Below, piece after piece: positions 7,569 to 48,927 of a DNA stretch of 64,000 nt. Position numbers and translations under genes: made by a program. Source of the DNA: an archaeon (GTDB taxonomy: Bacteria; Gemmatimonadota; Glassbacteria; GWA2-58-10); the NCBI GenBank assembly GCA_035528795.1, contig DATKXY010000274.1:958-64957 (forward strand). The letters are read 5' to 3'. Every line of letters starts with the position of its first letter. The stretch's first letter is position 1. The notes below the pieces were generated by a model that was not told the DNA's origin, made no database searches, and saw only the letters and a list, made by a program, of their open reading frames with translations.

Positions 7569-7723
7569 TTTTTCAATCGCCCGGTGACGGCTGACAGCTC
7601 GTGATTCAGTTATTTGGCAAGATATCAGGCAGGCCTTGAGTGCTTATGGATTCTACAACTAACTTCTCTGATTTTGCGTATCTTGCAGAATACAATGCCA
7701 CGCAGTGCGAAAGGGGAGGACAA

Positions 7724-30621: not shown

Positions 30622-32220
30622 TCAGCTCTCTTTCTCCAGACTTTCCCCATCTAAGGATTTGGACTCCAGATTCAAGGAAGTGGGCACTATCTTACCTGTC
30701 TGGCGGTGGAGATAACCTGGTATTTTCTCGTGGCTTGCCGGGGTAACCTCTTCATCGTACCCATTTTTAGCAGCGATTGCCGCCCCGATCAGCATTATCC
30801 CACCCCCGACAAAAATCGACTCTCCATATCCGCCGATAGTCAAATAGTAGAGCACACCGACCATAATGGCCAGGACCAATACCAGGGGCAAAGCAAAAAT
30901 CATTTTTTTAAATGCATTGGTCATACGGATATTCCCGGACAAATTATCGAAATAATAATTAATGACCTGATTTGCAGCTCTCTGGGATGAATCGAAATAA
31001 AAAAAATTTCCAAGACAGGTAAGAATAAAAAATTCCTGTTCCATCTTGGAGGTGTACTTGCCGTATAAATAATGCTCTTCTTTGTCCAGGCTTTTGATTA
31101 CCGCCACAACATAGCCTCCAGACAGCCGGTAACACTGTCCCTCTTTTACTGGTGATTGAAGATTGTAGAGCACCTCGGAGCGCAGAAAAAACTTGCCTTT
31201 CTTGGTCTGCTTTGCCTGACTGAAAAAGCTGTTACTGATAGTCCGCCGCGCATGAGACATATCTGAGCCTGCGACAGCCGGGCAGACAAAATCATATTGC
31301 AAGGCCACTTCATGAGCGCCTATCACCGCTTTAGAGCGAATATAGTCTTTGAGGCTCGAGACACCATTTTCCTCTATCTCCGCCACAATGATTTCGATAT
31401 ACAACTCCAGCATGACTTTCCTGAGACGGCTGAATTCACAGGGGTATTCGCTGAACATTTCGAACAACTGATCGCATTTTGCAGCAGCTTCACCTTTAAA
31501 TGTATTCTCCAGGGTGAGATTTTCCTTAATATCCATAATCTTCTTGGAGGCTTCCGCCATTTTATAATCTAGGTAGTTCTTGCTCACCAGGTTTTCATTA
31601 AAAACAGCAGGCAATCCCACCTCGCTAATTATCGCGTTAATGCTCAAATCGCTCTCTGGAACTCCTTTGAGCACGCGGTAGCGGGAATTAAAGAATTTGT
31701 GGAGGCCTTTATCCCAGATGTAATCGTACAACCGCATGAGCTCGAGCTCCTGGATCAGCTCGATCAACCGCTCGTTGGACTGATTGCCGAAAATCATAAA
31801 ATAGAGCTTTTTCAGCTCCTGATTCTCAAGCTCCCGGGCACCAAACAAATTGACCAGGCTTTTCCCCTCCGCCCTGGGAGAAAGCATTAGCTGGAGCGTG
31901 GCGATCTCACAACTTTTCGGCATCTGGTCAAGCTGGAAAACCCCGGCCGCTTTTCTGTCAAGAAATTTATCGAGCAGCGTTAAACTTATACCATGCCTTA
32001 AAGAAATAGCTGACATGCCGCCGTAATTTCTGGCCAATATCTCCTCTATTATCTGGGCGAAATATTCAACTTCCTCGGCCCCCTCGACCAATGTGGGCAG
32101 ACGGCTTAGCTTGATCTGATCCCTGATGTAATTTTTATTGATCATCCAGGTACCAGTTTTTGCAACGGAACCTGCAGGAGAAAAATGCTCCGACCCGATT
32201 TCCATTTTATTTTCGGACAT
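30622..32220 (-). CDS. Hypothetical 532-aa protein with two C-terminal TM helices and a possible N-terminal HTH. Low-GC gene.
   Basis: No family recognised. MSAISLRHGISLTLLDKFL resembles an XRE-type helix-turn-helix. The C-terminus MIFALPLVLVLAIMVGVLYYL...IMLIGAAIAA contains TM helices. Codon usage is AT-rich. Confidence 0.45.
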   Translation of the reverse strand: MSENKMEIGSEHFSPAGSVAKTGTWMINKNYIRDQIKLSRLPTLVEGAEEVEYFAQIIEEILARNYGGMSAISLRHGISLTLLDKFLDRKAAGVFQLDQMPKSCEIATLQLMLSPRAEGKSLVNLFGARELENQELKKLYFMIFGNQSNERLIELIQELELMRLYDYIWDKGLHKFFNSRYRVLKGVPESDLSINAIISEVGLPAVFNENLVSKNYLDYKMAEASKKIMDIKENLTLENTFKGEAAAKCDQLFEMFSEYPCEFSRLRKVMLELYIEIIVAEIEENGVSSLKDYIRSKAVIGAHEVALQYDFVCPAVAGSDMSHARRTISNSFFSQAKQTKKGKFFLRSEVLYNLQSPVKEGQCYRLSGGYVVAVIKSLDKEEHYLYGKYTSKMEQEFFILTCLGNFFYFDSSQRAANQVINYYFDNLSGNIRMTNAFKKMIFALPLVLVLAIMVGVLYYLTIGGYGESIFVGGGIMLIGAAIAAKNGYDEEVTPASHEKIPGYLHRQTGKIVPTSLNLESKSLDGESLEKES

Positions 32221-35650: not shown

Positions 35651-36796
35651 TCAGGCGACATTATCGGATTTGTCGAATTCCTCGATAAATTTCATGGTCT
35701 TGTCCAGTTTCTCGCGCAGTTTAATAGAAACCACCTGCATCTCTCCGACTTTCTGGCCGAGCACTCCGGAAAGATCAATAGCCAACTCTCTCGGCTCGCA
35801 CAAAGGATTGGGAAAACCGTTTTCATGGGCCAGGTTCTCGGCTTTGGCTACTATACAGGCCCCGAAAGCAGTTTCCCGGCCGAGCGCCTCATCGAAACCG
35901 AAAGTACCGCAATGGTGCAGGCCTACAAGCTCGCAAATCTCCCGGTGAATTTTCCACTGCTCGGCGAGCATCTTACCGGCAATCAAGTGGTTGAAACCAA
36001 ACGCCTCCTCCTCAAGCTGCATCGGGTTCTCCGGCCTGGGCTGGCCTTTCAGGCGCCCGAAAAGACCGGCGGCGGTTTCCTGATCGTAGTGGCTGTAAAG
36101 CACCCAGCCGATATCGTGCAAAAGCGCCGCTGTGGTGATAGCCCCCACGTTACGGGTATAGCGGAGAACCTCGCGCAAAATGTATTCGGCGCAAACCGAA
36201 ACCGCATGCGAATGTTTCCAGAACCCCAACAGGTCGAAATATTCGCTCTCTGCCTTGCTCTTGCTCAAGCCCGAGCGGATAACATGCTGAAAGATTATAT
36301 TTTTCACCTCATTGTAACCCAGATAGGTAATCGCCCGCTGAAGAGAATCTATATGATAGCGCAGGCCGAATGCCGCAGAGTTGACTGTCTTAAGAATTTT
36401 AGCGGCATAAAAAGGATTCGACACCACGAACATGGCAATTTCGCGGGGCTCCATATCATAGTTGATCTCAATCAGCGGGGTTTCGCCTAGATCCGGCAAA
36501 TCGCGCAGCACATGCTCCAGCCGCCAGACTGTCTCGACCTCGACCTGAGAGCGGGTCATCGGCCGCCAGCCTGCCGCTGAGGGCAGCTCGACAGGTTGAG
36601 CCTTGATCTCGGGAGAGATGTTCCTGGCCCCGGCAGGCCGGGAATCTCCCGGGGTCTCCTGCGGCGCCTGACTCTTCCGGTCATACCTGATGATACGCTG
36701 CTGAGGCGGTTTTTTTCTGCCGGAACGCAAGCGCAGCACAAGGTAGATAACAGAAAGCACCATAGCAAATAAAACGAAAAAATCCAATATTGTCAT
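35651..36796 (-). CDS. HDOD-domain signalling protein with an N-terminal TM anchor
   Basis: N-terminal TM helix (ILDFFVLFAMVLSVIYLVL), then HDOD-like FGLRYHIDSLQRAITYLG...LLHDIGWV...GLHHCG. Confidence 0.5.
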   Translation of the reverse strand: MTILDFFVLFAMVLSVIYLVLRLRSGRKKPPQQRIIRYDRKSQAPQETPGDSRPAGARNISPEIKAQPVELPSAAGWRPMTRSQVEVETVWRLEHVLRDLPDLGETPLIEINYDMEPREIAMFVVSNPFYAAKILKTVNSAAFGLRYHIDSLQRAITYLGYNEVKNIIFQHVIRSGLSKSKAESEYFDLLGFWKHSHAVSVCAEYILREVLRYTRNVGAITTAALLHDIGWVLYSHYDQETAAGLFGRLKGQPRPENPMQLEEEAFGFNHLIAGKMLAEQWKIHREICELVGLHHCGTFGFDEALGRETAFGACIVAKAENLAHENGFPNPLCEPRELAIDLSGVLGQKVGEMQVVSIKLREKLDKTMKFIEEFDKSDNVA

Positions 36797-37024
36797 GGCC
36801 CGTTATCCTGTTGAAGAAAGTAAAATCATTCAAATTCAAACAATTTCTAGCTATTCTATACCTCAGGCTTATCGACTGTCAAGCGTAAAGCCCGAAATGT
36901 AAATATTAATTGCAAAACCCCCTTCTAGAGCTTGACTGATGCCAAGGTTTATTGATACTATTGTTTATGAATTTATCTTAAATCTTTGACCTGCTCCATA
37001 CTCTCTCTTTATTGAGAGGTCTTC

Positions 37025-40000
37025 TTGCTCCACTCCAAAATCATAGGCCGGCTTTTTATCACTTTAACTTTTCCCCTTTGCAGCCTGGCACTCTCCGCTG
37101 GAGCACAGAAAGAGGATTCACCACTCGATTCACTCCGAGTTGAGAACTACCAGCTCAAAGAACGCCTGAATTTTCTGGAGGCGCGCAGGGAAGCTTTCCG
37201 CTGGGGCCGTTTCACTGAGGGCGCAGTGCTTCGCTCGGGATCGGTCATGCATTCGGAGCTCACACCTGAGGGAAGGCTGGCCTTTGCCACAGACAGGCAG
37301 GGAGTTATCTTTTTCGATGGGACTGTTTTCGAGATTGTAAACAGCCGCTTCTCCGGGCTCCAGGATGATTTTGTCACCTCACTGGCCCCCCTTGACGGAA
37401 ACCGGGCCTACCTGGCTACAGGCTCCGGCCTTGTTTTTTACGACCAGGGAACCGTGACCAGATGTGAAAATATCCCCGCTGAACTGGAAACAGCACCGGT
37501 AAGCTGCCTGGCGGCTCAAGGAGAAAAAGATCTCTGGGTCGGCACGCAGGGCATGGGGCTTTGGCATCTCTCAGGGGACAGGTGGGAAAACTTCCAAGCA
37601 GATACGGATTCCACGGGCCTGAGTAATAACGATATCAACTCTCTGGTTGTGGAACCGAACACGGAAACGGTTTGGGTCGGCACGGCAGGCGGAGGCGTTT
37701 ACCGCCTGGGTCCCCAAGGCTGGCAGAGATTCGAGGAGCCCCTTGGACCTGGAAGCAGTGAGGTGTATTGTCTGACCCTGGATGCCGACGGTCTGATTTG
37801 GATCGGCACGGTCAGTGCCGGCGCAGGTTTCTGGGATGGTATCGCCTGGCGCAAAGCCCCCCTCCCTTTGGAGGAAAACGAAGGGGTGGTCAATATCGCC
37901 GTGCTCTCTGATGGAGACCTGTTTTTCGGCTCCACCGCCGGCTCTTTTATCTACGACCGGGCAGCCGGACTCTGGCAGAGGCTCCCGGTTCCGGAAGAGC
38001 TGGCCCCCTATCCGATAATTTCAGCCTGCGAAGCCTGCGACCACCTCTGGCTCTCCCCCTCCGGCCAGGGCCTCTACCTCTATGACCGGGGCGTGATCGA
38101 ACGCTACAGCCAGGAACAAGGTCTGCCTTCAAACATAGTCTACCATATCGCCCAGGCGGAAGACAACCGCATCTGGTGCGCCACATGGAACGGGGTCGGT
38201 ATTTTCGACGGGCGAAGGTGGAAAAGAATGGGACGCGGGGATGGTCTGCCCAGCGACCTTGTCAATTTCGTTCTTTTCGGCAAGGAGGACAAGGCCTGTT
38301 TTGGTACGCACAGTGGCGTGGCCATTCTTTCCGCGGGACAGTGGACGGTTTATGACCGGGATAACGGCCTGACGAGCAACACTATCAACCACCTCTCGCT
38401 GGACAGCCGAAACAGGCTCTGGATCAGTACAGAGGGCGGAGGTCTGGGTGTTCTGGAGGGCGATTCGCTGAAAATATTCAGCGCCAGCGACGGGCTGCCC
38501 AGCAATCAGGTGCAGGCAGCGGCAAATGAGCCGAATGGCACTGTGTGGGTGGCAACCAAAAGGGGGCTGGCCTGTATCGAGCAGGGCCGGGTATTCCCGG
38601 TTGCCGAGGATCAAAGCTCGCCCGGATCAAGGCCCGGCCCATATCATTTCACTGCGCTGGAGGTCACCGCGGACGGTTCGCTGTGGGCCGCCACATACGG
38701 CCAGGGAGTATGGCGTAAAAATGCGCAAGACCAGTGGCGCCAGTTTACTGTAGATAACGGACTGAACTCTAATGAAGTCTATGCAATTGCCAGCAGCCGG
38801 GATGGACGCCTGTTTTTCGGCACAACGATGGGTTTAAGCCTTTATGACGGAAAGTACTGGAGGTCATACGGACCTGCCGACGGCCTTATCTCAGGCGCGG
38901 TCAAAAGTATCACCCCGGCAACTGACGGCGCGCTCTGGCTGGCTTCCGAGGACCAGGGAATTGTCCGTTTCGACCTGACTCGCTTCCAGCCCCCGGAAAC
39001 TTACATCCGCACACCGGAGGGGCTGCTTGTATGCCAGAATGTAAAAAACCGGCTCGTGCAGCTTGTGGCTGCGCAAGACAAAAATAGCGCTCCAGCGCAA
39101 GCCGACACCGCCGGGGGCGTTTTTTATCTTGAAAACCAGTATTATTTCGCCTTACCGGGACCGGCTGTTGTGGATACATTGAGCGCAAGCCGGCTCGAAC
39201 TCTCCGCTTTGGCCATGACACCCTGGTGGCCTGAAACAGCCAAGCAATTCCGTTACAGCTATAAGCTCGACAACAATCCCTGGACTGATTTCAGCTACCA
39301 GGGCACGATCGGCTTCCATGGGCTCGAGCGCGGGATGCACGTGATCAATGTCCGGGCCAAGGGCCCTCACCTGCGGGTTGATCCCACGGCAGCCATTTAC
39401 AGATTCTATGTGGATATACCCACGCTCTGGAGCGACTGGCGCACTTATGCTCTGGCGCTGATCCTCCTTTCCGGGATTTTTGCCGTTATCTTCCGCAAAC
39501 AGCTGACCTGGTACCTCGGCAAACTCCGCCATAGGCATTTCAGGCCTCTCACCCCGAATCCATTCAACCCCAATGTACCGGTAAGAGAAAAAGAGCGCTT
39601 TTTCGGCCGGGAAGAGACACTCAAGGCCTTGAGCGAATCTTTCACCTCGGGACATGTTTCGCTTATTATCCACGGTGAGGAAAAGATCGGCGTGACAAGT
39701 CTCCTGACACAGGCTGCCGATCATGTTAAACAACAGGGAGCCAAAGCTCTGTACCTCGACCTGGCAAGGCTCTACTTCCAGGATGTGAAAGCCTTTATCA
39801 AACACCTGAGCCTTCTGTTGGCCAATGAAACTCCCCCAGCCCCTGATCTGGACAAACAGGCCGATGTATCGCTGGAGGATTTCCGGGAGCTTGTCGGCCA
39901 GGAACAAAGCCCAGTACTCTTCTTTTTTGATAACGCCGAGCTTTTCGGCCGCCTGATTCTCCGCGATGAAAAATCGGGTTCCGAGCTCGCTTCCTGTTTT

Positions 40001-41893
40001 CGTGAGCTGCTGCTCAGCGACAACGGTGCCAGCTTCGTTTTCGGGCTCAAGGCCCTGAACCTTTTCCGGGAACAGGTGGAAGTGCTTTTCGATGTGAGCC
40101 GGATTATCCGTGTCGGCGAGGTCACCCGGGAAGCCGCAAAAGCAATTATCACCAAACCTCTCGCCGGCCGGGCGCTGTTGCATGATGACGCCCTGGACCT
40201 GCTGGTAAGTCTGGCCGGAGGCCATCCTTACCTGCTTTACTGCCTGGGCCAGGAACTGGTGGAACAAGTGAACCGGGAGCGCACAAATCTCTGCACTGAG
40301 GGTCTGGTGTCCCGGACCGTGGAGAGCCTGCTCAAGAACCCACCTGTGCTGCTTGTTGACTGCTGGGATGAGTTGACCAAAAGGGAGAAGCTACTCCTTG
40401 CAGCGGCGGTTTCGGTGTCTTTTTCCAGCGAGAAGCCGGTGATCTTGAGCCTGTCGGACATTGTCGGCATCCTGAGCTCGCACCGGATATCCTTGCTCGA
40501 GGAGGAGCTGGCCAAGGCCTCCGCAGATCTTTCCCATCGAGAATTACTGCTCACCGAGGACGGTGGCGCCAGGATCCGGGTGGAGGATTCACTCTTGAAC
40601 CGCTGGATCTGCGCCAATCAGAATATAGACCTTATCAATGCCCTCGAGGAGTACGATCTGGGCGAGGCCATGCGCAAACTAGGCGATGAACTCGCCCACT
40701 CCTTCAAGATGGATGAGCTGGCCAGGCGAATACTCTCCTTCCTGGACGGGCTGCTGCATTTCGAATGGGGAGCACTCCTGGCCGCGCAGAGCAAGAAGGG
40801 GGAGGGAGAGCAAATACCGCTGACGCAACTTGGAACTGCCGGTTCCGGAGCCCACGGGATAAAACTTCCCGAGAGCCTCTCCGCCAGGATGCTTGAGAGA
40901 TTGAGCCTTAAAGGCGGCGCACTGACTGTCGAGGGACAGGCCCCAGGCGAGGACTCTACTGACCAACCATGGCCATTCCAGCCGGGCACCCTGCTTGTAC
41001 CCATGATGACAAGAGGTACATTTGCGGGTCTCCTCGCTCTCAGCAGAAGGAGGGACGGCGAGCGCTACAGCCGAAGGGACAGGCTGTTTGTGGAAACGAT
41101 CGCCGAGCAGGTCGCTGTGTCTATGGAAAATGTCCGGCTCTACGAAGAAGAAACCGAAAAAGAAAGATTGAAACAGGAACTGGAAACGGCCCGCAAGATG
41201 CAGATGGCCATCCTGCCGGAAAGAAAACCCCAACTCCCTGACCTGGATATTTATGCCTATCTCAACCCGGCAACCGAGGTGGGAGGCGATTACTTCGATT
41301 ATATCCAGGTCGATGGCTCGAAGCTACTTTTTATTATCGCTGATGTAAGCGGCCACGGAATAAGCGCCAGCACCCTGGTATATATGGCAAAAAGCTGTAT
41401 TTTCAACCAGATCAAAACCGACTACAGCGTGGAAAAAGTGATGGCGGCGATGAACGACATGGTCTATGGGGTGCTCAAAGAACGATTGCTGATGACTTTC
41501 TGCTATGCGATATTCGATTTGGAAAAACGCACTCTCAGCTATTCAATCGCCGGACACCCGTTCCCATATCATTACCATGCAAGAGAGGGAAAGCTCAAAG
41601 AGCTGGAGCTTTCCGCCTATCCCCTGGGTGTCACCCCCAAGGCCAAATATAAATCAGTTGAAATCAGTTATCAGCCCGGTGACCTTTTCGCTTTTTACTC
41701 GGATGGAATTATCGAGGGCTCGAATCCCGGCGGCGAGCAATTCGGTTTTCTGCGCTTCGAGCAAATTATTCTCGATAACAAGGATCTTGACGCCGAGGGA
41801 ATAAACCGGAACATGATCGATAGTTTTCATGTTTTCTCAAAAGGTAATCCACAGGACGATGATGTAACTCTGGTAACGATCAAGGCCCAATGA
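37025..41893 (+). CDS. Giant (1622-aa) sensor serine phosphatase. Domain order: signal peptide, periplasmic two-component-regulator beta-propeller repeats plus Y_Y_Y-like region, TM helix, degenerate P-loop NTPase (AAA-like), GAF-like domain, PP2C/SpoIIE phosphatase.
   Basis: Signal peptide LFITLTFPLCSLALSA. Reg_prop-like repeats include GLSNNDINSLVVEPNTETVWVGTAGGGVYRL and LPSNQVQAAANEPNGTVWVAT. TM segment WRTYALALILLSGIFAVIF. NTPase-like FFGREETLKAL...SLIIHGEEKIGVTSLL. The PP2C domain has MQMAILP...GGDYFDY...LFIIADVSGHGISAS...FAFYSDGIIE and C-terminal DDDVTLV. Confidence 0.75.
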   Translation: MLHSKIIGRLFITLTFPLCSLALSAGAQKEDSPLDSLRVENYQLKERLNFLEARREAFRWGRFTEGAVLRSGSVMHSELTPEGRLAFATDRQGVIFFDGTVFEIVNSRFSGLQDDFVTSLAPLDGNRAYLATGSGLVFYDQGTVTRCENIPAELETAPVSCLAAQGEKDLWVGTQGMGLWHLSGDRWENFQADTDSTGLSNNDINSLVVEPNTETVWVGTAGGGVYRLGPQGWQRFEEPLGPGSSEVYCLTLDADGLIWIGTVSAGAGFWDGIAWRKAPLPLEENEGVVNIAVLSDGDLFFGSTAGSFIYDRAAGLWQRLPVPEELAPYPIISACEACDHLWLSPSGQGLYLYDRGVIERYSQEQGLPSNIVYHIAQAEDNRIWCATWNGVGIFDGRRWKRMGRGDGLPSDLVNFVLFGKEDKACFGTHSGVAILSAGQWTVYDRDNGLTSNTINHLSLDSRNRLWISTEGGGLGVLEGDSLKIFSASDGLPSNQVQAAANEPNGTVWVATKRGLACIEQGRVFPVAEDQSSPGSRPGPYHFTALEVTADGSLWAATYGQGVWRKNAQDQWRQFTVDNGLNSNEVYAIASSRDGRLFFGTTMGLSLYDGKYWRSYGPADGLISGAVKSITPATDGALWLASEDQGIVRFDLTRFQPPETYIRTPEGLLVCQNVKNRLVQLVAAQDKNSAPAQADTAGGVFYLENQYYFALPGPAVVDTLSASRLELSALAMTPWWPETAKQFRYSYKLDNNPWTDFSYQGTIGFHGLERGMHVINVRAKGPHLRVDPTAAIYRFYVDIPTLWSDWRTYALALILLSGIFAVIFRKQLTWYLGKLRHRHFRPLTPNPFNPNVPVREKERFFGREETLKALSESFTSGHVSLIIHGEEKIGVTSLLTQAADHVKQQGAKALYLDLARLYFQDVKAFIKHLSLLLANETPPAPDLDKQADVSLEDFRELVGQEQSPVLFFFDNAELFGRLILRDEKSGSELASCFRELLLSDNGASFVFGLKALNLFREQVEVLFDVSRIIRVGEVTREAAKAIITKPLAGRALLHDDALDLLVSLAGGHPYLLYCLGQELVEQVNRERTNLCTEGLVSRTVESLLKNPPVLLVDCWDELTKREKLLLAAAVSVSFSSEKPVILSLSDIVGILSSHRISLLEEELAKASADLSHRELLLTEDGGARIRVEDSLLNRWICANQNIDLINALEEYDLGEAMRKLGDELAHSFKMDELARRILSFLDGLLHFEWGALLAAQSKKGEGEQIPLTQLGTAGSGAHGIKLPESLSARMLERLSLKGGALTVEGQAPGEDSTDQPWPFQPGTLLVPMMTRGTFAGLLALSRRRDGERYSRRDRLFVETIAEQVAVSMENVRLYEEETEKERLKQELETARKMQMAILPERKPQLPDLDIYAYLNPATEVGGDYFDYIQVDGSKLLFIIADVSGHGISASTLVYMAKSCIFNQIKTDYSVEKVMAAMNDMVYGVLKERLLMTFCYAIFDLEKRTLSYSIAGHPFPYHYHAREGKLKELELSAYPLGVTPKAKYKSVEISYQPGDLFAFYSDGIIEGSNPGGEQFGFLRFEQIILDNKDLDAEGINRNMIDSFHVFSKGNPQDDDVTLVTIKAQ

Positions 41894-44043
41894 AAAAAAA
41901 TCAGCCCATAAAAAAAGTCAGTGAAGCCGCGGTCGAAAAAACGGTCGGCAGGCTTGTCGAATTGTCCCGAATCAGCAGTCTCTTTCTGGAAGCCGAAAAA
42001 GTCGAGGCGGCGCTTGCCGAAGCGCTCGGGATAATCCGGCGCCTGCTCTGCCATGAGAGGGTATATATCTATCTATACGAAGAGGATGACAGGCTGCTTC
42101 TGCCCTTTGACTCAAGCCAGAACACCGCCTGCCCACCGCTCGAGCTGCCCCAAAGCCTGCTGCGACCGCCTGAAGACCGGCGGAAAGGGCCTAAGCTCCA
42201 GTTGAATGACCTTAATAAATTGATTTACTTGAATGGGAAAAACCATTCGGAGCCATGGAGTCTTTTCTTTCAATTAAACAGAAATGCTCTCAAAAAACTC
42301 GAGATCCGGCTGATCGTCCCCCTGGGTACAGGCCGCGATTTCCTGGGCGCGATCCTCCTCGGCGAAAAAAACCGGGATCTCCGGTTGAGCCGGGATCAGC
42401 TTGAGCTGCTGGAGGCTGCGCACATGGAACTCTCTCTCGGTCTGGCCCGCTTCAAGCTTCTGAAATCGATCAAGCGCTCGCATTACGAGACAAAACTCAA
42501 GATTCTCGAACTGGAAACCCTGCAGGACATCGGAATAGCTATTGCAAGTATTCTCGACCTTGATCAACTGACAAAGGAGCTTCTTCTGCGAGCGGTCTCA
42601 GTGCTCAATGTCAACCGGGCAATGGTACTGGTTAAACGGCCGGGCGAAAGTATCCTCAGCCGTATCGATAAGGAACCGGAGCCTATGTATGTGGCTGAAA
42701 CCTTTGGTTTGGAAAGGGCCGAGACAGATAAATTATGCTTTTTCGGCGGCTGCGATGCGGTTCTGGAGAATCTGAGGAAAAGAATCCCCACGATTCTTAA
42801 CGATTCCAAGGCTATTCCCCAGGCTCTTGACTGCGGAAAACTGCTGGTGATGCCGATTCAGTTCAAGGGTGAGCTGCTGGGATGCATTATGGTTGGCGAC
42901 AAGGAAGGCCGTTATGGGCAGTTTCCTGATTTCGACCAGGGTGACCTGAGCCTGCTCGGCGCCATGGCCAACCAGGCGGGAGCCGCTATCTCAAATGCCA
43001 AGCTGTACAGTAATGTGCTGGAAATGAAACAATATAACGAGAACATTCTCACCAGTATCGCCAGCGGGGTGATCACCACTGATAACGAAGGCAGAGTGGT
43101 GAGCTATAACGATTCGGCGGCGAAGATTTTCTCAATCCCCGCTTCTCAGGCGATAGGGTTGAAAATTGAGGAGCTTTTCTCAGCGGTAGATCAAGTCACT
43201 CTGGCCGAGAAACTGGCTGCCACTTTAAAAGAGGGAAGCACTTACCAGGAGACAAACCTGCGAGCTCGCACCCCTGCCGGGTCAGAAATTGTATTTAATA
43301 TCAGCCTGACCCAACTTTATGCAGAGGACGAGAAAAAAAGCACCAGAGGCGTGGTGGTCTCAGTGGAAAACATCTCCGAGGGGGCCAGAGTCAAAGAAAT
43401 GCTCAAGCGCTATGTCAGCGCGAATATAGTGGATCTGGCGCTGGAGAAAGAACACGAGCTGGCCCTGGGCGGCAAATTATGCGAGGTTACCATTCTTTTT
43501 ACCGATATACGGGGATTCACCGAAATGAGCGAGGAGAAAACACCCGGGGAAGTAGTCGACCTTCTCAACAGCTATTTTGACTTGATGATTGATGTGGTTT
43601 TTCGTTACAATGGTACAGTGGATAAAATTGTGGGCGATGAACTAATGGTCCTTTTCGGCGCTCCTTTCGCTTTCAAGGATGACACGCACCGTGCTGTGGG
43701 CTGTGCTCTGGCCATGCTCGAAGCGCTCGGAGAGTTCAACAAGCGCCGTCTGCCGGAAGGGCATGCTCCCCTGGCAATCGGTATCGGTCTGAACCGGGGC
43801 TCTGTGATCTCAGGCAATATCGGCTCGACAAAGCATATGGATTACACGGTCATCGGGGATGCCGTGAACCTGGCCAGCCGCCTTGTAGGCCATGCTGCTA
43901 AAGGTCAGATTCTGATCTCACGCAGCGTGTACGAAAACCTGAACAACTCATTCCTCTGCCGCAGGATGGAAAACATCCGGGTCAAGGGCAAAAAGGACCC
44001 GATAGAAGTTTTCGAGGTTCTGCACAAAAACAGACAAAAATAA
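41890..44043 (+). CDS. GAF/PAS-containing class III adenylate cyclase
   Basis: The C-terminal CHD has ILFTDIRGFTEMSE (metal Asp), KIVGDELMVLFGAP (substrate Lys), YTVIGDAVNLASRL (Asp gives adenine specificity), plus IGIGLNRGSVISGNIGS. Upstream are GAF-like and PAS-like regions. The ATGA start overlaps the stop of the preceding gene. Confidence 0.8.
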   Translation: MKKNQPIKKVSEAAVEKTVGRLVELSRISSLFLEAEKVEAALAEALGIIRRLLCHERVYIYLYEEDDRLLLPFDSSQNTACPPLELPQSLLRPPEDRRKGPKLQLNDLNKLIYLNGKNHSEPWSLFFQLNRNALKKLEIRLIVPLGTGRDFLGAILLGEKNRDLRLSRDQLELLEAAHMELSLGLARFKLLKSIKRSHYETKLKILELETLQDIGIAIASILDLDQLTKELLLRAVSVLNVNRAMVLVKRPGESILSRIDKEPEPMYVAETFGLERAETDKLCFFGGCDAVLENLRKRIPTILNDSKAIPQALDCGKLLVMPIQFKGELLGCIMVGDKEGRYGQFPDFDQGDLSLLGAMANQAGAAISNAKLYSNVLEMKQYNENILTSIASGVITTDNEGRVVSYNDSAAKIFSIPASQAIGLKIEELFSAVDQVTLAEKLAATLKEGSTYQETNLRARTPAGSEIVFNISLTQLYAEDEKKSTRGVVVSVENISEGARVKEMLKRYVSANIVDLALEKEHELALGGKLCEVTILFTDIRGFTEMSEEKTPGEVVDLLNSYFDLMIDVVFRYNGTVDKIVGDELMVLFGAPFAFKDDTHRAVGCALAMLEALGEFNKRRLPEGHAPLAIGIGLNRGSVISGNIGSTKHMDYTVIGDAVNLASRLVGHAAKGQILISRSVYENLNNSFLCRRMENIRVKGKKDPIEVFEVLHKNRQK

Positions 44044-44048
44044 TTGAC

Positions 44049-44486
44049 ATGGGCAGCGAAAAATTAAAATTCGACAGTTGCGTGACTATGACTGTGCCGA
44101 TGGAGGCCAACCAGGAGCTCAAAGTGGCCGAGCGGGCGGAAGAGCTGGCTGTCCGGCTGGGCTTCGAGCGGGATCCGATCGATGAGATAAAGCTCGCCCT
44201 GATTGAAGCCGTAATAAACGCCATCGAGCATGGCAGCAGCCCTGAGCGCAAGGTATTTATTACCTTCGGACTCAACCGGAAGCCTCGCCGGATGGCAATT
44301 GTCATCTCGGATTCCGGCTCAGGCTTTGATCCCGGCGCTGTCGAAATACCGGACATCAAGAAAAAGATGCAAAAAGGCACGCGCAAAAGGGGCTGGGGAC
44401 TGAAAATCATGCGCAGTCTGATGGATGAAGTACGGGTTGAATCTTCCCGGGGTGGGACGCAAATTACCTTGATCAAAAACGGTTAA
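44049..44486 (+). CDS. Anti-sigma regulatory factor-type Ser/Thr kinase (RsbW/SpoIIAB-like HATPase_c)
   Basis: N-box EAVINAIEHG, G1 VISDSGSGFD, G2 RGWGLKIM. 145 aa. It starts 6 nt after the cyclase stop. Confidence 0.75.
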   Translation: MGSEKLKFDSCVTMTVPMEANQELKVAERAEELAVRLGFERDPIDEIKLALIEAVINAIEHGSSPERKVFITFGLNRKPRRMAIVISDSGSGFDPGAVEIPDIKKKMQKGTRKRGWGLKIMRSLMDEVRVESSRGGTQITLIKNG

Positions 44487-44628
44487 AAGTAATTTGACAA
44501 TTAAGCCAGTTCTCTCTACATTAATTCTAGATCTCTGTTAACCTGTTTGCCAAATAGCTTGCTAAAAGAAAATTATGCATCTTGAAACCCAGTTCCATTG
44601 TTCATCCAGATTACCGGAGTAACCACTT

Positions 44629-44979
44629 ATGGCAGAAAATTTTCAAGTAACCATTCGCCGGGAGATTAACTACGCTATCCTTTATACTGATGGCTATATT
44701 AACAATACCGGCGGCGAAAAGATCGCCCAGGAATGTTACAAACTGCTGGATGAAGGGATAAAGCGTTTCATCCTCAATCTGGCCAAGTCACCGATTGTCA
44801 ATAGTGTAGGTATTGCCGTGCTGATTGAGCTCATTGAGAGGGTGCGGGAAGAGGGTGAAAAAGTGATTTTTTGCAATTGCACCCCGGTGATCTCAAAAAC
44901 CTTTAAAATTATGGGATTGACCCAATATGCCGAACTATACGATGATGAAAGGGAAGCTATTGGTAACATTTCATCATGA
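44629..44979 (+). CDS. STAS-domain anti-sigma-factor antagonist (RsbV/SpoIIAA-like)
   Basis: 116 aa. The KRFILNLAKSPIVNSVGIAVLIEL beta-alpha pattern places a Ser (S59, nt 44803-44805) where SpoIIAA-type proteins are phosphorylated. Confidence 0.7.
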   Translation: MAENFQVTIRREINYAILYTDGYINNTGGEKIAQECYKLLDEGIKRFILNLAKSPIVNSVGIAVLIELIERVREEGEKVIFCNCTPVISKTFKIMGLTQYAELYDDEREAIGNISS

Positions 44980-44998
44980 GACAGCGGCGGGCGCAGAA

Positions 44999-46156
44999 AT
45001 GAAAAGGTTTGTCCTCTTATTGGCGATGTTTTTCCTTATGGGTGCGGTCGCCCCTTTGCAAGCCGTATTCGATAAAGCGCAGCTCAACGATAAAAGGTAT
45101 ATCAACATCGTCTTTATCCTCGACTGCTCGGCAAGCATGAACAAGATAATCGGCCCGGTGCGCAAGATCGACATCGCTAAAAAAACCGTGGAATCGATTA
45201 TCAAAAACCTGGCAGTAGAAAGCCATGATGCCGCTTCAATGAAAACGGCTTTGAGAGTTTTCGGTTCCAAGTTCTACAAATGGAAACAGAACTGCGATGA
45301 CACCAGCCTTGAAGTGGCGCTGGATGATATCGAAAAAACCCTGAATCCCATTCTGATCACGGTTAAAAATGTCACGGCCAAAGGCCAGAGTTCGCTTTCT
45401 CTGACCATGGATGCGCTTAAAGGGGATTTCCCGGAAGAGAATGACCAGAGCAATTTTATTGTGGTAGTTTCCGACGGCGATGAATCCTGCGGAGGAAGCC
45501 CTTGCGCTGCTGTTAAACAACTCGCCAGCACAAGCCAGGGGGTTTCTGTAAACACTCTCGGTGTGGAGACCGACCCTGCCGGTTACGAGAATCTCAATTG
45601 TATGGCCAATGCCGGCAACGGCTTATATTTCGACAGCAAGGATGTAGAGGATTTTATTCTTTTCCTCAAAGATAATAACAAAATTATACAGGAAAACCGT
45701 CGGCTGTTCGCTCTGCAAGCCTCAAAGAGCGCGAATGATACTACGCGAATCAAGAAGCGCGATGTGACCGCCGATCTGAAAGAATATGTTCTTGAAGAAG
45801 CTTCTCCGCTCTATCCGGACCGGGATGAACGTTTTCCTGCCATTGATACCTTGAAACCCGAGGACAAACTGTTTTTGATCTCTTCCAGAGGACTCTGGCT
45901 TAATGTTTTCGCACCGGCGAAGCAGATCCAGGGCTGGATCCTGGCCAAAACCGGAGGATCGGAGTACTCGGTAACCGTAACTGATGACAAAACACCTCTT
46001 TATGTGGAGAAGAGCCCATCGAGCCAGGTAGCCGTTTATCTGAACGCGGGCGACCAGCTTACTGTCTTAAAAAAAGAAGGCGCCTGGTATAATGTTTTCA
46101 ACTCGAAACTTAATCTCAAGGGATGGGTTATCGCATTCAATGTAGCGGAGAATTGA
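44999..46156 (+). CDS. Secreted von Willebrand factor A (VWA) domain protein with a C-terminal SH3b-like domain
   Basis: Signal peptide MKRFVLLLAMFFLMGAVAPLQA. VWA fold with IVFILDCSASM (MIDAS DxSxS) and VVVSDGDESCGG. C-terminal SH3b-like GAWYNVFNSKLNLKGWV. A start at 44999 is preferred over the in-frame ATG at 44927, which overlaps the STAS gene. Confidence 0.6.
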   Translation: MKRFVLLLAMFFLMGAVAPLQAVFDKAQLNDKRYINIVFILDCSASMNKIIGPVRKIDIAKKTVESIIKNLAVESHDAASMKTALRVFGSKFYKWKQNCDDTSLEVALDDIEKTLNPILITVKNVTAKGQSSLSLTMDALKGDFPEENDQSNFIVVVSDGDESCGGSPCAAVKQLASTSQGVSVNTLGVETDPAGYENLNCMANAGNGLYFDSKDVEDFILFLKDNNKIIQENRRLFALQASKSANDTTRIKKRDVTADLKEYVLEEASPLYPDRDERFPAIDTLKPEDKLFLISSRGLWLNVFAPAKQIQGWILAKTGGSEYSVTVTDDKTPLYVEKSPSSQVAVYLNAGDQLTVLKKEGAWYNVFNSKLNLKGWVIAFNVAEN

Positions 46157-46234
46157 ATTCCAATGCCTGGGTGGCTGGATTGGCTTGGAATTTTCCTGTG
46201 GCGATCTGATTAATCCTCAACCATAGGCGAAGAT

Positions 46235-47239
46235 ATGCCTGGAGTTCTGAAAAAGTTCAAAAAAGGCGATGTGATTATCGCCGAGGGTACCACAGGCAAA
46301 TTCCTTTATATCATTGAATCTGGCAAAGTCGAGGTGACCAAGGAAAGCCCTACCGGTCCTTTGCAACTTGCCACTTTGGGCCCCAATGAAGTTTTCGGCG
46401 AAATGAGCCTGATTGACGACCGTTTCAGCCGCCGCACCGCCACAGTCCGAGCCATTGAGGACAGCCAGGTAATAGTCCTCGACAGACGGGGGTTTGACAG
46501 TTACATCAATCAGGCCTCCCCCGGTATCTTCAACCTGATCAAAAGACTCTCCAAACGTCTGCGGGAAACAAACGATATTATCACCCGCGCTGGTGGAGAT
46601 GTGCATAACCTTCCTAAAGCCCTCAAAACAAAACCGGTCACCGGGGATAAAGAGCAAAAACTCACTTTCGACCAGATGGCTGAATCAGTAGAAGCCGCAG
46701 TTGACCTCAACCTCATGCCGAAAAAATTCAAAAAAGACCAATTGCTGATCAGGGAGAACGCCGATGCAATGAGCCTTTTCCTGATCAGGGACGGAGCAGT
46801 CAAGATTTTCAAGAAACTGGGCGACCAGGAAGTCGAGATCGACACTCTCTGCGCCAGTGAGGTGTTTGGCGAGATCAGCATGTTCGGCGACGGGAAGCGC
46901 TTTGTGACTGCAAAAGCCATTGAAGACGGGGAAGCGGTCGTTTTCAGCAAGAAACAAATGGACGAAATGCTTCGCAAAGCCCCGCTCGAGCTTTTTTTGA
47001 TTATGGAATGCATGACCCAGAAGTTGAAAAGGATTACCTTGCGTTTTCTGGAACAGATGGATGAAAAACAAAAATCAGAGAGTGTGTGCCGGAAACTGGA
47101 AGCGGAGCTGAACGACTTGAAAAAAGAGAATTTGACGCTTCAGGAAAACCTCAAGAAAATGCGCGAAAATCAAACTGCCAGACCTGCTTTCACCCCTGTC
47201 GATCCCGCTTCGCCACCCCAGGATAATGAGATCACCTGA
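46235..47239 (+). CDS. Tandem cyclic-nucleotide-binding (cNMP) domain protein with a C-terminal coiled-coil. No recognisable HTH.
   Basis: Two cNMP motifs, FGEMSLIDDRFSRRTATVRA and FGEISMFGDGKRFVTAKA (the conserved Gly-Glu...Arg-(T/S)-A phosphate-binding cassette). The C-terminal KLEAELNDLKKENLTLQENLKKM is coiled-coil. Confidence 0.75.
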   Translation: MPGVLKKFKKGDVIIAEGTTGKFLYIIESGKVEVTKESPTGPLQLATLGPNEVFGEMSLIDDRFSRRTATVRAIEDSQVIVLDRRGFDSYINQASPGIFNLIKRLSKRLRETNDIITRAGGDVHNLPKALKTKPVTGDKEQKLTFDQMAESVEAAVDLNLMPKKFKKDQLLIRENADAMSLFLIRDGAVKIFKKLGDQEVEIDTLCASEVFGEISMFGDGKRFVTAKAIEDGEAVVFSKKQMDEMLRKAPLELFLIMECMTQKLKRITLRFLEQMDEKQKSESVCRKLEAELNDLKKENLTLQENLKKMRENQTARPAFTPVDPASPPQDNEIT

Positions 47240-47248
47240 GCCTTTTCA

Positions 47249-47290
47249 GGCAGAACTTCGCCCCTGCCATCCGGATTTCACCTTTATTTC
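47249..47290 (+). terminator. Candidate intrinsic terminator after the cNMP-binding gene
   Basis: ggcagaacttcgcccctgcc has a 5-bp GC stem and is followed by the T-rich tract atttcacctttatttcttct. It is weak. Confidence 0.25.
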
Positions 47291-47298
47291 TTCTAAAA

Positions 47299-47324
47299 TC
47301 TAGCCAAAGATATTTGAAATTTAT
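47299..47324. repeat. Second copy of the 26-nt repeat tctagccaaagatatttgaaatttat
   Basis: 25 of 26 positions match 29415-29440. Confidence 0.5.
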
Positions 47325-47439
47325 TTTATCTAACCACTAAGTAACTATGTTGCTTAGTGCTATAGTTCGAAAGTTCGGAGATGTATTTTATTCATAGTAC
47401 ACGAGTCCTTAAATGCGGCTAAGCGGTCGCCCTCTGGCA

Positions 47440-47660
47440 GTTCCACGGATCCAGTTTATGCGGCGGGCGGAGAATGTCTTGAGCGCCCGCACTATTTCGG
47501 GCAATCCAGGAGTAGGGGCGGGTTTTAAACCCGCCCTCCCGGCTGTGAATAATCGTGACCTTTCAGGCGAATCGAACCACGGTGATAGTTCGTTAAGGGC
47601 GGGTTTGAAACCCGCCCCTACCAGTAAAAATGTCTGGATTGAATAATACGTCATAATATT
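47440..47660. repeat. Structured repeat element, copy D. It is a tandem duplication of a module made of a perfect GC palindrome plus TGAATAAT.
   Basis: GGGCGGGTTTTAAACCCGCCC (47516-47536, a perfect 21-nt palindrome) and GGGCGGGTTTGAAACCCGCCC (47597-47617), 81 bp apart. Each is followed within 10-23 nt by TGAATAAT (47546-47553 and 47640-47647). The core matches the TGTGAATAAT motif of copies A and B. Confidence 0.55.
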
Positions 47661-47967
47661 TATGAAATCATATACTTAGTGTCTTTGTGGTTAAAAATGT
47701 AAGAGATATTCTCTTAGAGCGAATTTGTAAGAATCTATTGGCATCCAGTTTATGTCAGAATGATTCTTGAGTTTGACCTGGAGCTTGTTTATAGTTAAAT
47801 TTTTTGTTAGTGGAGTTATATCCGCACTGTTCAGGGTGATTAGAGAATCCGGTGGTGGGGGCCGGCCCCCACGCCCCTCTTTCGCCCACTTAAACTATCT
47901 GTAACCTTGCAGTCAAACCGACTGGTTTTTTATGACCAACCCAGGTTAAAACAAGGAACCTCCGTCA

Positions 47968-48927
47968 GTGGAAAAAACTCTGCTCAAGCCCCGAAGACTC
48001 AAACAGGGTGACACCGTGGGCCTGGCAGCCCCGGCAAGCCCCCTGCTCACTTACCGCGATATCTCGCGGGCCGAGCATGTGCTCGCCGGCATGGGGTTCA
48101 AGGTGCGCCGCGGCCGGTTCATTCGCCGCAGGACAGGCTTTCTCGCCGGCAGCGACCGTGAGCGCGCCGCTGATCTCAACTCCATGTTCGCAGACCCCTC
48201 GGTGCAAGGTATTTTCACCCTCCGGGGCGGCTACGGAAGCGGCCGCCTGCTCGGGCTTCTCGATTGGGACACTATCCAGGCCAACCCCAAGGTCATTGTC
48301 GGCCACAGCGATCTGACCGCGCTGCTTATCTCTATTTACCAGCGGACAGGCATGGTAACTTTCTGGGGCCCGCTGGCAGGCTACGATCTCGGCCGCTCAC
48401 CCTCCCCTTTTAAACTGAAATGGCTCAAAGCAGTGACTTGCGAAAGCCAGTCCGGCATGAGGCTGCCCAAAGGCCCGGGAGCCGCGGGCCGCCGCTGGCG
48501 CGTGCTGGGCGGGAGCGGGGTGGCCGAGGGCCGCCTGGTCGGAGGGAACCTGAGCCTTCTGGCAAGCCTGATGGGCACGCCGTATGAAATCGACACCAGG
48601 GGCAAGCTCCTTTTTTTCGAAGATGTGGATGAAGACCCATACAGGATCGACCGGATGCTCAATCAGCTCGATCTGGCGGATAAATTGCGCGCGGCTGCGG
48701 GGATTCTGGTGGGACGGTTCATGAACTGCGAGTCAAGCGGAAGGATGCGGCGCTCGTTCGGTTTGCGCCATGTGCTGAAAGAAAGATTGGGCGGCCTCGG
48801 CATCCCGGTGGTCTATGGAGCTCCTATCGGTCACGAGCCTGAAAAAATAACCCTTCCCCTCGGAGTAACGGCCCGCCTGTCGGCCAAGGACAGGAGCCTC
48901 ACCCTGCTCGAGCCGGCGGTCTTGTGA
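47968..48927 (+). CDS. ldcA: LD-carboxypeptidase (muramoyltetrapeptide carboxypeptidase, peptidase S66)
   Basis: GDTVGLAAPASP...GYGSGRLL...KVIVGHSDLTALL (nucleophilic Ser in GHSD) ... C-terminal AP/IGHE catalytic region. GTG start. Confidence 0.75.
   Translation: MEKTLLKPRRLKQGDTVGLAAPASPLLTYRDISRAEHVLAGMGFKVRRGRFIRRRTGFLAGSDRERAADLNSMFADPSVQGIFTLRGGYGSGRLLGLLDWDTIQANPKVIVGHSDLTALLISIYQRTGMVTFWGPLAGYDLGRSPSPFKLKWLKAVTCESQSGMRLPKGPGAAGRRWRVLGGSGVAEGRLVGGNLSLLASLMGTPYEIDTRGKLLFFEDVDEDPYRIDRMLNQLDLADKLRAAAGILVGRFMNCESSGRMRRSFGLRHVLKERLGGLGIPVVYGAPIGHEPEKITLPLGVTARLSAKDRSLTLLEPAVL

Follow-up and report, generated by a model that had tools for sequence, protein, structure and literature searches.

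A sigma-less candidate partner switch tied to a class III adenylate cyclase in a Glassbacteria-type genome

A stretch of 64,000 nucleotides (nt) from contig DATKXY010000274.1 (assembly GCA_035528795.1; this whole stretch is termed the window) carries, at 37025-47239, six co-directional open reading frames (ORFs) on the forward strand (Table 1). These encode: a large sensor phosphatase of the PP2C type; a class III adenylate cyclase; an RsbW/SpoIIAB-type serine kinase; a small STAS protein; a secreted VWA-SH3b protein; and a protein with two cyclic nucleotide monophosphate (cNMP)-binding domains. An earlier reading of the DNA alone, here called the original prediction, listed these ORFs and proposed that phosphatase, kinase and STAS protein form a partner switch wired to cyclic-nucleotide signalling instead of a sigma factor. 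The coordinates held, and a Pfam scan bore out every domain assignment. Taken together, cyclase-kinase fusions in relatives, operons in distant genomes and a metagenome control support a switch partnered with cyclic-nucleotide signalling in place of an adjacent sigma factor, and these sequence comparisons point to partner switching of an adenylate cyclase as an undescribed way to gate the production of cyclic AMP (cAMP). Functional coupling of the switch and the cyclase is very probable. The more specific proposal, that the kinase alternates between the STAS protein and the cyclase, so that the adenylate cyclase would be the switchable partner of a sigma-less switch, is assigned a probability of roughly 0.55.

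Table 1. Genes and promoter-like elements of the locus (positions in the window; aa, amino acids)
Feature	Position	Strand	Description
Sensor PP2C phosphatase	37025..41893	+	1622 aa; Pfam SpoIIE/PP2C, Reg_prop, GAF
Class III adenylate cyclase	41890..44043	+	717 aa; Pfam Guanylate_cyc, GAF, PAS
RsbW/SpoIIAB-type serine kinase	44049..44486	+	145 aa; Pfam HATPase_c_2
Single-domain STAS protein (RsbV/SpoIIAA-like)	44629..44979	+	116 aa; Pfam STAS 4e-13
Secreted VWA-SH3b protein	44999..46156	+	385 aa from likely start; Pfam VWA, SH3_3
Tandem cNMP-binding protein	46235..47239	+	334 aa; Pfam two cNMP_binding stretches
Promoter-like element P1	36932..36961	+	TTGACT, 18 nt, TACTAT, TG upstream; consensus scan; ahead of phosphatase gene
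Promoter-like element P2	44494..44522	+	TTGACA, 17 nt, TACATT; scan, 10/12 matches; kinase-STAS spacer

The genes are closely packed. The phosphatase stop and the cyclase start overlap by 4 nt, as originally noted (41890 versus 41893), the cyclase and kinase genes are 5 nt apart in different frames, and gaps of 142 nt (44487-44628) and 78 nt follow the kinase and VWA-SH3b genes, respectively. The predicted spacing was confirmed, with one correction at the VWA-SH3b gene. Its longest ORF begins at 44927 and would overlap the STAS gene; the likely start at 44999 (MKRFVLLL...), which lies after the end of the STAS gene, gives a hydrophobic, signal-peptide-like N-terminus, and gene callers use this 385-aa form.

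The kinase, the STAS protein and the phosphatase catalytic domain all have the sequence hallmarks of an RsbU/V/W-type module. The kinase matches HATPase_c_2 (E-value 2.2e-23), and its top solved relatives are RsbW (6M36, 6.7e-11) and SpoIIAB (1TH8). Its N-box (E53/N57/H61), G1 (D88-G90-G92) and G2 (R114-G115-G117) residues are invariant among 18 homologues. The STAS protein is closest among solved structures to SpoIIAA (1TH8_B), with Ser59, in the sequence NSVG, aligned to the phospho-acceptor Ser58. The motif N-S-[IV]-G with Ser59 is invariant in 89/89 family members. Alignment and conservation sustain the earlier designation of Ser59 as the predicted phospho-acceptor. The third component, an RsbU/SpoIIE-type PPM domain, occupies phosphatase residues 1431-1621 and contains the GGDYFD, ADVSGHG and DDDVT motifs; its solved matches are the P. 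aeruginosa response-regulator PP2C 3ES2, Rv1364c, RsbX and SpoIIE. The claim that the three genes make up a complete partner-switching toolkit is in keeping with these intact motifs. An RsbR/RsbS pair was not found: the cluster contains one STAS gene, and neither it nor the flanks contain an RsbR-like gene. With just one STAS gene the module is not a stressosome, and the generic stressosome-type module that had been considered as an alternative is disfavoured both by the missing pair and by the fusion of the kinase to the cyclase in relatives.

The remainder of the phosphatase resembles a transmembrane receptor. Its Pfam matches are: SpoIIE/PP2C (2.8e-43); Reg_prop, in many repeats (1.5e-33); GAF; and a weak AAA_16/STAND-like region. 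Hydropathy analysis places a signal anchor at residues 6-24, a periplasmic domain of ~780 residues at 25-805 and a transmembrane helix at 805-828. The periplasmic part is of the double beta-propeller/Y_Y_Y type, matching 4A2L (2.9e-37) and 3V9F. The transmembrane helix and the GAF-PP2C part are separated by a STAND/AAA_16-like module (39575-40715, residues ~851-1230); its Walker A motif is degenerate, reading GEEKIGVTS against the consensus GxxGxGK[ST].

The cyclase matches Guanylate_cyc (1.6e-33), GAF (1e-12) and PAS (2e-10). Residues 1-222 form a weak additional GAF domain, giving a cytoplasmic protein with the order GAF-GAF-PAS-catalytic. Alignment to Cya2 (2W01) and CyaB (3R5G) identifies both metal-binding Asp residues (FTDIRGF, VGDE), the adenine-type Lys (VDKIVGD), the Thr (DYTVIG) and the Asn and Arg (AVNLASR), and these catalytic residues are kept in 30-35 of 36 cyclases linked to partner switches. 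The cyclase therefore looks like a competent Lys/Thr-type adenylate cyclase, for which cAMP synthesis is predicted. A cAMP-binding GAF domain was considered and rejected, as a regular-expression scan of the 717-aa protein for partial motifs (N[KR].[DE][DE] or NK[FY]) found no NKFDE-type cNMP-binding motif.

A co-encoded cognate sigma factor is typical of RsbU/V/W modules; no such gene was found among the window ORFs scanned or near the locus in 13 annotated relatives. In agreement with the original prediction, Pfam Sigma70 matched neither the flanking genes nor any other window ORF that was scanned. The flanking genes encode HDOD, HhH-GPD and Dus proteins upstream and an LD-carboxypeptidase, a HEAT-REC protein and trpE/G downstream, and the remaining scanned ORFs are nuo genes, outer-membrane proteins and his/trp enzymes. 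A conserved cognate sigma factor just beyond the window had also been contemplated, and none was present among the Pfam-matched genes within ~10 kb at the 13 annotated loci, which come from several phyla. A search of 96 loci with SigB and RpoE seeds gave no match either, a weak negative with approximate seeds.

Switch and cyclase are linked by gene fusion in relatives. In a sister lineage, an 871-aa protein (P0099) shares 51% identity with the window cyclase across 99% of the length of the latter and continues in frame, after a 20-aa linker, into an RsbW-like kinase. Its locus (L096) encodes a 1660-aa propeller-PP2C, the fusion, and STAS, VWA-SH3 and cNMP proteins. The DNA of the fusion junction is identical in the NCBI metagenome-assembled genome (MAG) and in an independent Logan assembly. 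The window cyclase and kinase are thus the split form of a fused pair. In three unfused Glassbacteria-type loci (L007, L009, L010) the cyclase stop overlaps the kinase start, and in the others examined the two lie a few nt apart (5 nt in the window), which suggests translational coupling.

The fusion is not confined to this lineage. When P0099 was searched exhaustively against 1.84 billion representatives, at least 11 further 50%-identity clusters, Planctomycetota included, aligned through both the cyclase and the kinase domains. Pfam found Guanylate_cyc followed by a C-terminal HATPase_c_2 in 10/10 fusion representatives scanned. The N-terminal sensors vary (GAF-GAF-PAS, GAF-PAS, GAF, REC or none), which leaves the pairing of cyclase and kinase as the constant element. 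The catalytic motifs are the same whether the kinase domain is fused or free. A minimal natural fusion, P0203, is 399 aa long. One protein (P0267) is a REC-cyclase-HATPase_c_2 fusion, and a marine metagenome contig (L100, 2501-3600) carries a second cyclase, of the REC type, directly upstream of kinase, STAS and GAF-PAS-cyclase genes.

Synteny among close relatives was rejected as evidence of linkage. All six genes are carried by loci L001-L010, L016-L020, L096 and L098. Where contigs are long enough, these loci share the flanks Dus, HhH-GPD and HDOD on one side and LD-carboxypeptidase, HEAT-REC and trpE/G on the other. In relatives whose kinases are 53-69% identical, the six genes and these housekeeping flanks are retained together, so this conservation says nothing about functional linkage, and distant homologues were used instead.

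Distant loci were mapped on MAG and metagenome contigs with hidden Markov models (HMMs) built from window seeds and spot-checked with Pfam; high-GC Acidobacteriota loci were mapped by stop-to-stop ORFs with HMM matches. PP2C, kinase, STAS and cyclase genes recur in unrelated flanks in Marinimicrobia, Bacteroidota, Planctomycetota and one unclassified lineage. The order is: PP2C, PP2C, kinase, STAS, cyclase in Marinisomatales (L057), with gaps of 6-20 nt; cyclase, YitT, Y_Y_Y-PP2C, kinase, STAS in Bacteroidota (L053, L078); and kinase, STAS, cyclase, STAS at L045. Four Planctomycetota-type loci (L012, L013, L015, L073), again with unrelated flanks, encode a single-domain cNMP protein, a free kinase, a cyclase-kinase fusion and a STAS protein, along with a GAF histidine kinase, a receiver and sometimes a propeller-PP2C. 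A rough neighbour-joining tree divides the cyclase-linked kinases into a Glassbacteria clade and a Planctomycetota/Marinimicrobia/Bacteroidota clade. Synteny beyond close relatives, with different flanks and gene orders, is thereby established for the four genes. The original prediction asked whether cyclase and cNMP genes together accompany the kinase/STAS pair: the cyclase does so in several phyla, and the cNMP gene is absent from the Marinimicrobia, Bacteroidota and L045 clusters. These gene maps define a conserved core of four genes, for PP2C, kinase, STAS and cyclase, and the six-gene unit is specific to Glassbacteria-type genomes.

A control was provided by a metagenome scan seeded with the fusion alignment, which returned 80 loci. 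Nine carry a cyclase of the (GAF-)GAF-PAS subfamily, and a STAS gene stands immediately upstream in all that are evaluable (8/8); the kinase gene is present too wherever the contig extends that far. At the ninth locus the contig ends directly after the cyclase gene, which is overlapped by a 1621-aa PP2C. A kinase or STAS gene accompanies none of the other class III cyclases (0/64), including those with at least 1.2 kb on both sides (0/21; Fisher p = 2e-7). Fusions, translational coupling and this subfamily-specific neighbourhood together identify the cyclase as the candidate for the other partner of the kinase.

Several observations weigh against that assignment. About 60 of the 80 best genomic kinase relatives, mostly from Acidobacteriota, have kinase, STAS and GAF-PP2C genes and no cyclase; control of cyclases therefore cannot be the only role of this kinase family, which must have other targets. 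Five Marinimicrobia loci have a propeller-PP2C, kinase and STAS without a nearby cyclase, and the cNMP receptor falls outside the conserved core. Fusion and neighbourhood also place proteins in one pathway without defining contact surfaces, and a tethered kinase could just localise STAS phosphorylation. Further, the sigma factor search covers loci and not whole genomes, which bears on the possibility of a conventional anti-sigma switch whose sigma factor is encoded elsewhere, with the cyclase and cNMP genes as neighbours under shared regulation or as a parallel output. Such a switch would suit the solved structures nearest to the kinase and STAS proteins, RsbW, SpoIIAB and SpoIIAA, and also the majority of kinase relatives, which lack a cyclase neighbour. 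It would, however, leave independent in-frame cyclase-kinase fusions and an association of 8/8 against 0/64 to be explained, and no sigma factor appeared within ~10 kb at the 13 annotated loci or in the scanned window ORFs; a conventional anti-sigma switch is quite unlikely.

The upstream and internal spacers contain conserved promoter-like elements. P1 has the form CTTGACTG-N17/18-TAC(T/A)AT and precedes the phosphatase orthologue in the window, L007, L009 and L096, in spacers that are otherwise unalignable. It is part of a divergent promoter-like pair (36853-36961), of which the element on the side of the HDOD gene (- strand) reads TTGACA...TAGAAT, with 11/12 matches. The TTGACA of P2 and TCTACATT are the sole invariant blocks across kinase-STAS spacers of 140-430 nt in six diverged Glassbacteria-type loci; in other phyla the same gap measures only ~10-35 nt. 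An RNA element in this spacer was considered and rejected: a scan of 36000-48500 against Rfam gave no match there, and the kept blocks are a promoter-like pair. P1 and P2 are thus read as sigma-70-like promoter elements, with a predicted function. The conserved P2 suggests that the STAS, VWA-SH3b and cNMP genes probably have their own promoter, and that the locus therefore probably comprises two units: phosphatase-cyclase-kinase and STAS-VWA/SH3b-cNMP. Downstream, the 730-nt gap after the cNMP gene contains two copies (47512-47537, 47594-47621) of a REP-like palindrome, GTAGGGGCGGGTTT(T/G)AAACCCGCCC; in relatives L009 and L010 this gap is just 25-50 nt.

Probable separate expression of the STAS gene from a conserved promoter-like element in Glassbacteria-type loci also fits an arrangement in which the STAS protein, not the kinase, directly regulates the cyclase, and the kinase and PP2C only set its phosphorylation state. 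The cyclase is always accompanied by a STAS gene, at L045 another STAS gene directly follows the cyclase gene, and a precedent is offered by HsbA-HsbD (PMC5085249). The fusions found nevertheless join the cyclase to the kinase, although no search was aimed at cyclase-STAS fusions, and the fused kinase domains keep all catalytic motifs, which fits a kinase-centred complex equally well. Direct control by the STAS protein is considered unlikely, and contact through the kinase is preferred.

The last two genes are lineage-specific additions to the switch-cyclase core. The VWA-SH3b protein (VWA, 2e-10; SH3_3, 1.4e-6) is present only in Glassbacteria-type clusters, as are the orthologues of the tandem cyclic-nucleotide-binding (CNB) protein in genomes of this type. 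The latter has two cNMP_binding stretches (1e-41), a coiled-coil-like C-terminus and, as predicted, no DNA-binding domain, no helix-turn-helix being found by the Pfam scan. Among solved structures it is closest to the tandem CNB-A/B domains of PKG I (3SHR, 4.4e-21). The phosphate-binding cassette of CNB1 is canonical (FGEMSL...RRTATV), and that of CNB2 is non-canonical (FGEISMFGDGKRFVTAKA) and keeps the Arg. On this basis, the protein is a probable cAMP receptor. The Planctomycetota cNMP protein is a different, single-domain form. An LD-carboxypeptidase gene (47968-48927 in the window) comes after the cNMP gene in all Glassbacteria-type loci, and at L098 (10001-11650) the two are fused (P0170). 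This fusion is distrusted as biology: the phosphatase gene of L098 is broken into five pieces, suggesting indel errors that may also have produced the fusion. Taken with the SH3b domain, which is of a peptidoglycan-binding kind, the fusion hints at a cell-wall theme.

The cNMP protein raises the question of whether cAMP is an input and not an output, with the tandem-CNB protein acting on the kinase or PP2C in the manner of a PKA regulatory subunit and the target lying elsewhere. The likeness of the tandem CNBs to PKG/PKA regulatory modules and the lack of a DNA-binding domain accord with this, and in the Planctomycetota clusters the cNMP gene directly precedes the kinase gene. The Marinimicrobia, Bacteroidota and L045 clusters, however, keep cyclase, kinase and STAS without a cNMP protein, the window and Planctomycetota proteins share one domain only, at 29% identity, and the cyclase-kinase fusion is left unexplained. 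A purely upstream role for cAMP is accordingly very improbable.

The pairing of a cyclase with a cNMP-binding protein also recalls Pycsar anti-phage systems, in which the latter is the effector. PADLOC PycC models do match the cyclase domain (6e-25) and PycTIR models the first CNB (7.6e-20), but these matches reflect shared folds alone: the cNMP protein lacks a TIR or transmembrane effector and is matched over profile positions 40-151 of 306, and the cyclase combines Lys/Thr residues of the purine type with large GAF-PAS sensors. The locus also keeps a constant housekeeping setting (Dus, HhH-GPD, trpE/G) in diverged genomes, unlike a mobile defence island. A Pycsar-like function is rejected, with a negligible probability.

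These considerations favour a pathway in which the adenylate cyclase is the output of the switch; all of its protein-protein contacts, enzymatic steps and direction of signal flow are inferred from sequence. The first step would involve recognition of an extracellular cue, probably a glycan, by the periplasmic propeller domain of the transmembrane PP2C, which would remove the phosphate from phosphorylated Ser59 of the STAS protein. The unphosphorylated STAS protein would then capture the RsbW-type kinase. Next, by analogy with characterised switches, the kinase may phosphorylate Ser59. Once the STAS protein is phosphorylated, the kinase would be free to bind the GAF-GAF-PAS class III cyclase, changing its activity either up or down. 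Class III cyclases and RsbW-type kinases both act as dimers, so the activity of the catalytic dimer could be set by a kinase dimer that docks on it, or is tethered to it, and that the STAS protein competes off. The GAF and PAS domains of the cyclase may add a second, cytoplasmic input. In the Glassbacteria lineage, the tandem-CNB protein would be the likely local reader of the resulting cAMP.

The same kinase/STAS family is also found beside a different type of cyclase. In Sericytochromatia, 5/5 loci (L025, L049, L050, L083, L089) carry kinase and STAS genes of this family, a small ORF and then a GAF-GAF-GGDEF cyclase; as judged from its gene content, this is the cyclic di-GMP (c-di-GMP) counterpart of the cAMP arrangement. 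A broader proposal is that kinases of this family are reversible, STAS-antagonised "anti-cyclase factors", acting on class III cyclases in Glassbacteria, Marinimicrobia, Bacteroidota and Planctomycetota and on GGDEF cyclases in Sericytochromatia, directly by binding, and forming a general and hitherto unrecognised post-translational layer of cAMP control in at least five phyla. This is tentative, its chances falling a little short of even. Under this proposal, the cAMP control layer of the window would be driven by an extracellular, glycan-type receptor phosphatase. Most of the Acidobacteriota loci (L022-L095) have a gene for a GAF/sigma-54-activator/HTH_8 protein ~0.5 kb upstream of the kinase gene (for example, L030 8026-9519 and L037 8041-9537), and this activator is a possible alternative target of the kinase family in that phylum.

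The window comes from an uncultured Glassbacteria-type bacterium. Proteins identical to those of the window are present on metagenome contigs, and the closest named relatives are MAGs of Candidatus Glassbacteria (candidate phylum Glassiibacteriota). Some Glassbacteria-type relatives carry the label Gemmatimonadales or Gemmatimonadota. The NCBI names of the window kinase, cyclase and cNMP protein (P0001, P0081, P0142) take the form 'MAG TPA: ... [archaeon]'; the close relatives, whether Glassbacteria or labelled Gemmatimonadales, are without exception bacterial, and the archaeon label of the source bin is probably wrong. Elsewhere in the window, two tandem paralogous outer-membrane proteins are encoded on the - strand (26516-27925 and 27957-29336), each with a beta-barrel, TSP_3 repeat and OmpA domain. 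Two further ORFs, of 532 aa (30622-32220, - strand) and 545 aa (7640-9277, + strand), have no Pfam match.

Partner switching and cAMP signalling are both among the best-studied forms of bacterial regulation and have so far been treated as separate. As the original prediction stated, partner switches with non-sigma outputs are already known, and these include switches acting on c-di-GMP cyclases. Its view that the present combination is undescribed agrees with a full-text literature search, of incomplete coverage, in which no paper linked class III cyclases to RsbW/STAS proteins or described fusions of the two. Judged from titles and term counts, most papers in which the terms occurred together seemed to use them in unrelated senses, for example for adenylate-cyclase two-hybrid assays. 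If the proposal is correct, adenylate cyclase activity is set by a small serine kinase together with the STAS protein that antagonises it. This would add a new class of input for class III cyclases, beside GAF, PAS, HAMP, bicarbonate and the like, and suggest what some of the many sigma-less RsbW/RsbV pairs in genomes may act on. The design would also be compact: from receptor phosphatase to STAS protein, kinase and cyclase, an extracellular signal could be converted to cAMP without a two-component system. One kinase/STAS family would then have been re-used for control of cAMP, c-di-GMP and possibly a sigma-54 activator.

The components of the window can each be compared with known systems. 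The RsbU/RsbV/RsbW-sigmaB and SpoIIE/SpoIIAA/SpoIIAB-sigmaF switches of Bacillus subtilis consist of the same three protein families and provide the best solved-structure matches. The window differs in having no sigma factor gene in or near the operon, in a phosphatase that is a 1622-aa transmembrane receptor, and in a kinase whose neighbour, and fusion partner in relatives, is an adenylate cyclase. The receptor part of this phosphatase, comprising the periplasmic Reg_prop propellers and membrane anchor, is homologous (2.9e-37) to that of the hybrid two-component sensors of Bacteroides thetaiotaomicron (4A2L/4A2M, 3V9F, 3OTT). The output sides are distinct: a STAND-like module, GAF and PP2C in the window, as against a histidine kinase, receiver and AraC module in Bacteroides.

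Similar comparisons apply to the two cyclic-nucleotide proteins. CyaB1 and CyaB2 of Anabaena are Lys/Thr-type cyclases with the domain order GAF-GAF-PAS, and the window cyclase likewise places a weak GAF, a strong GAF and a PAS domain before the class III catalytic domain. It differs from them in lacking an NKFDE-type motif in its GAF domains and in its position inside a partner-switch operon. CyaB2 is described in PMC4411481. The cNMP protein resembles PKG and PKA regulatory subunits in having two consecutive cNMP-binding domains and no DNA-binding domain. In contrast to these, it lacks a Hanks-type kinase partner and any recognisable segment for inhibition or docking, and it has a C-terminal coiled-coil-like tail and a non-canonical second cassette.

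Two precedents connect partner switching to a nucleotide second messenger. In the HptB-HsbR-HsbA pathway of Pseudomonas aeruginosa, HsbR is said to be a fused kinase and PP2C, and phosphorylated HsbA reportedly engages the diguanylate cyclase HsbD, the STAS protein being the proposed contact. As in the window, a PP2C/kinase/STAS switch is here tied to a second messenger and not just to a sigma factor. The link of this switch to HsbD is given in PMC5085249. The messenger there is c-di-GMP, as opposed to cAMP in the window, where it is also the kinase that is fused to the cyclase in relatives.

The second precedent involves RsbT, which activates RsbU by binding. In both RsbT-RsbU and the RsbT-MtG pair of Moorella thermoacetica, the kinase, a member of the RsbW family, switches between a STAS protein and a dimeric signalling enzyme that it regulates by binding, and the same is proposed for the window. 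The Moorella RsbT homologue controls the GGDEF protein MtG (Quin 2012, as cited in PMC12143880). By analogy, the kinase and STAS genes beside a GGDEF cyclase in Sericytochromatia may parallel this control. In Moorella, the output is likewise a nucleotide second messenger, c-di-GMP; the target contains the N-terminal domain of RsbU, and a stressosome (RsbR/RsbS) supplies the STAS partners. In the window, by comparison, the enzyme is a class III cAMP cyclase without an RsbU N-terminal domain, the STAS component is one small protein, and relatives join kinase and cyclase in a single chain.

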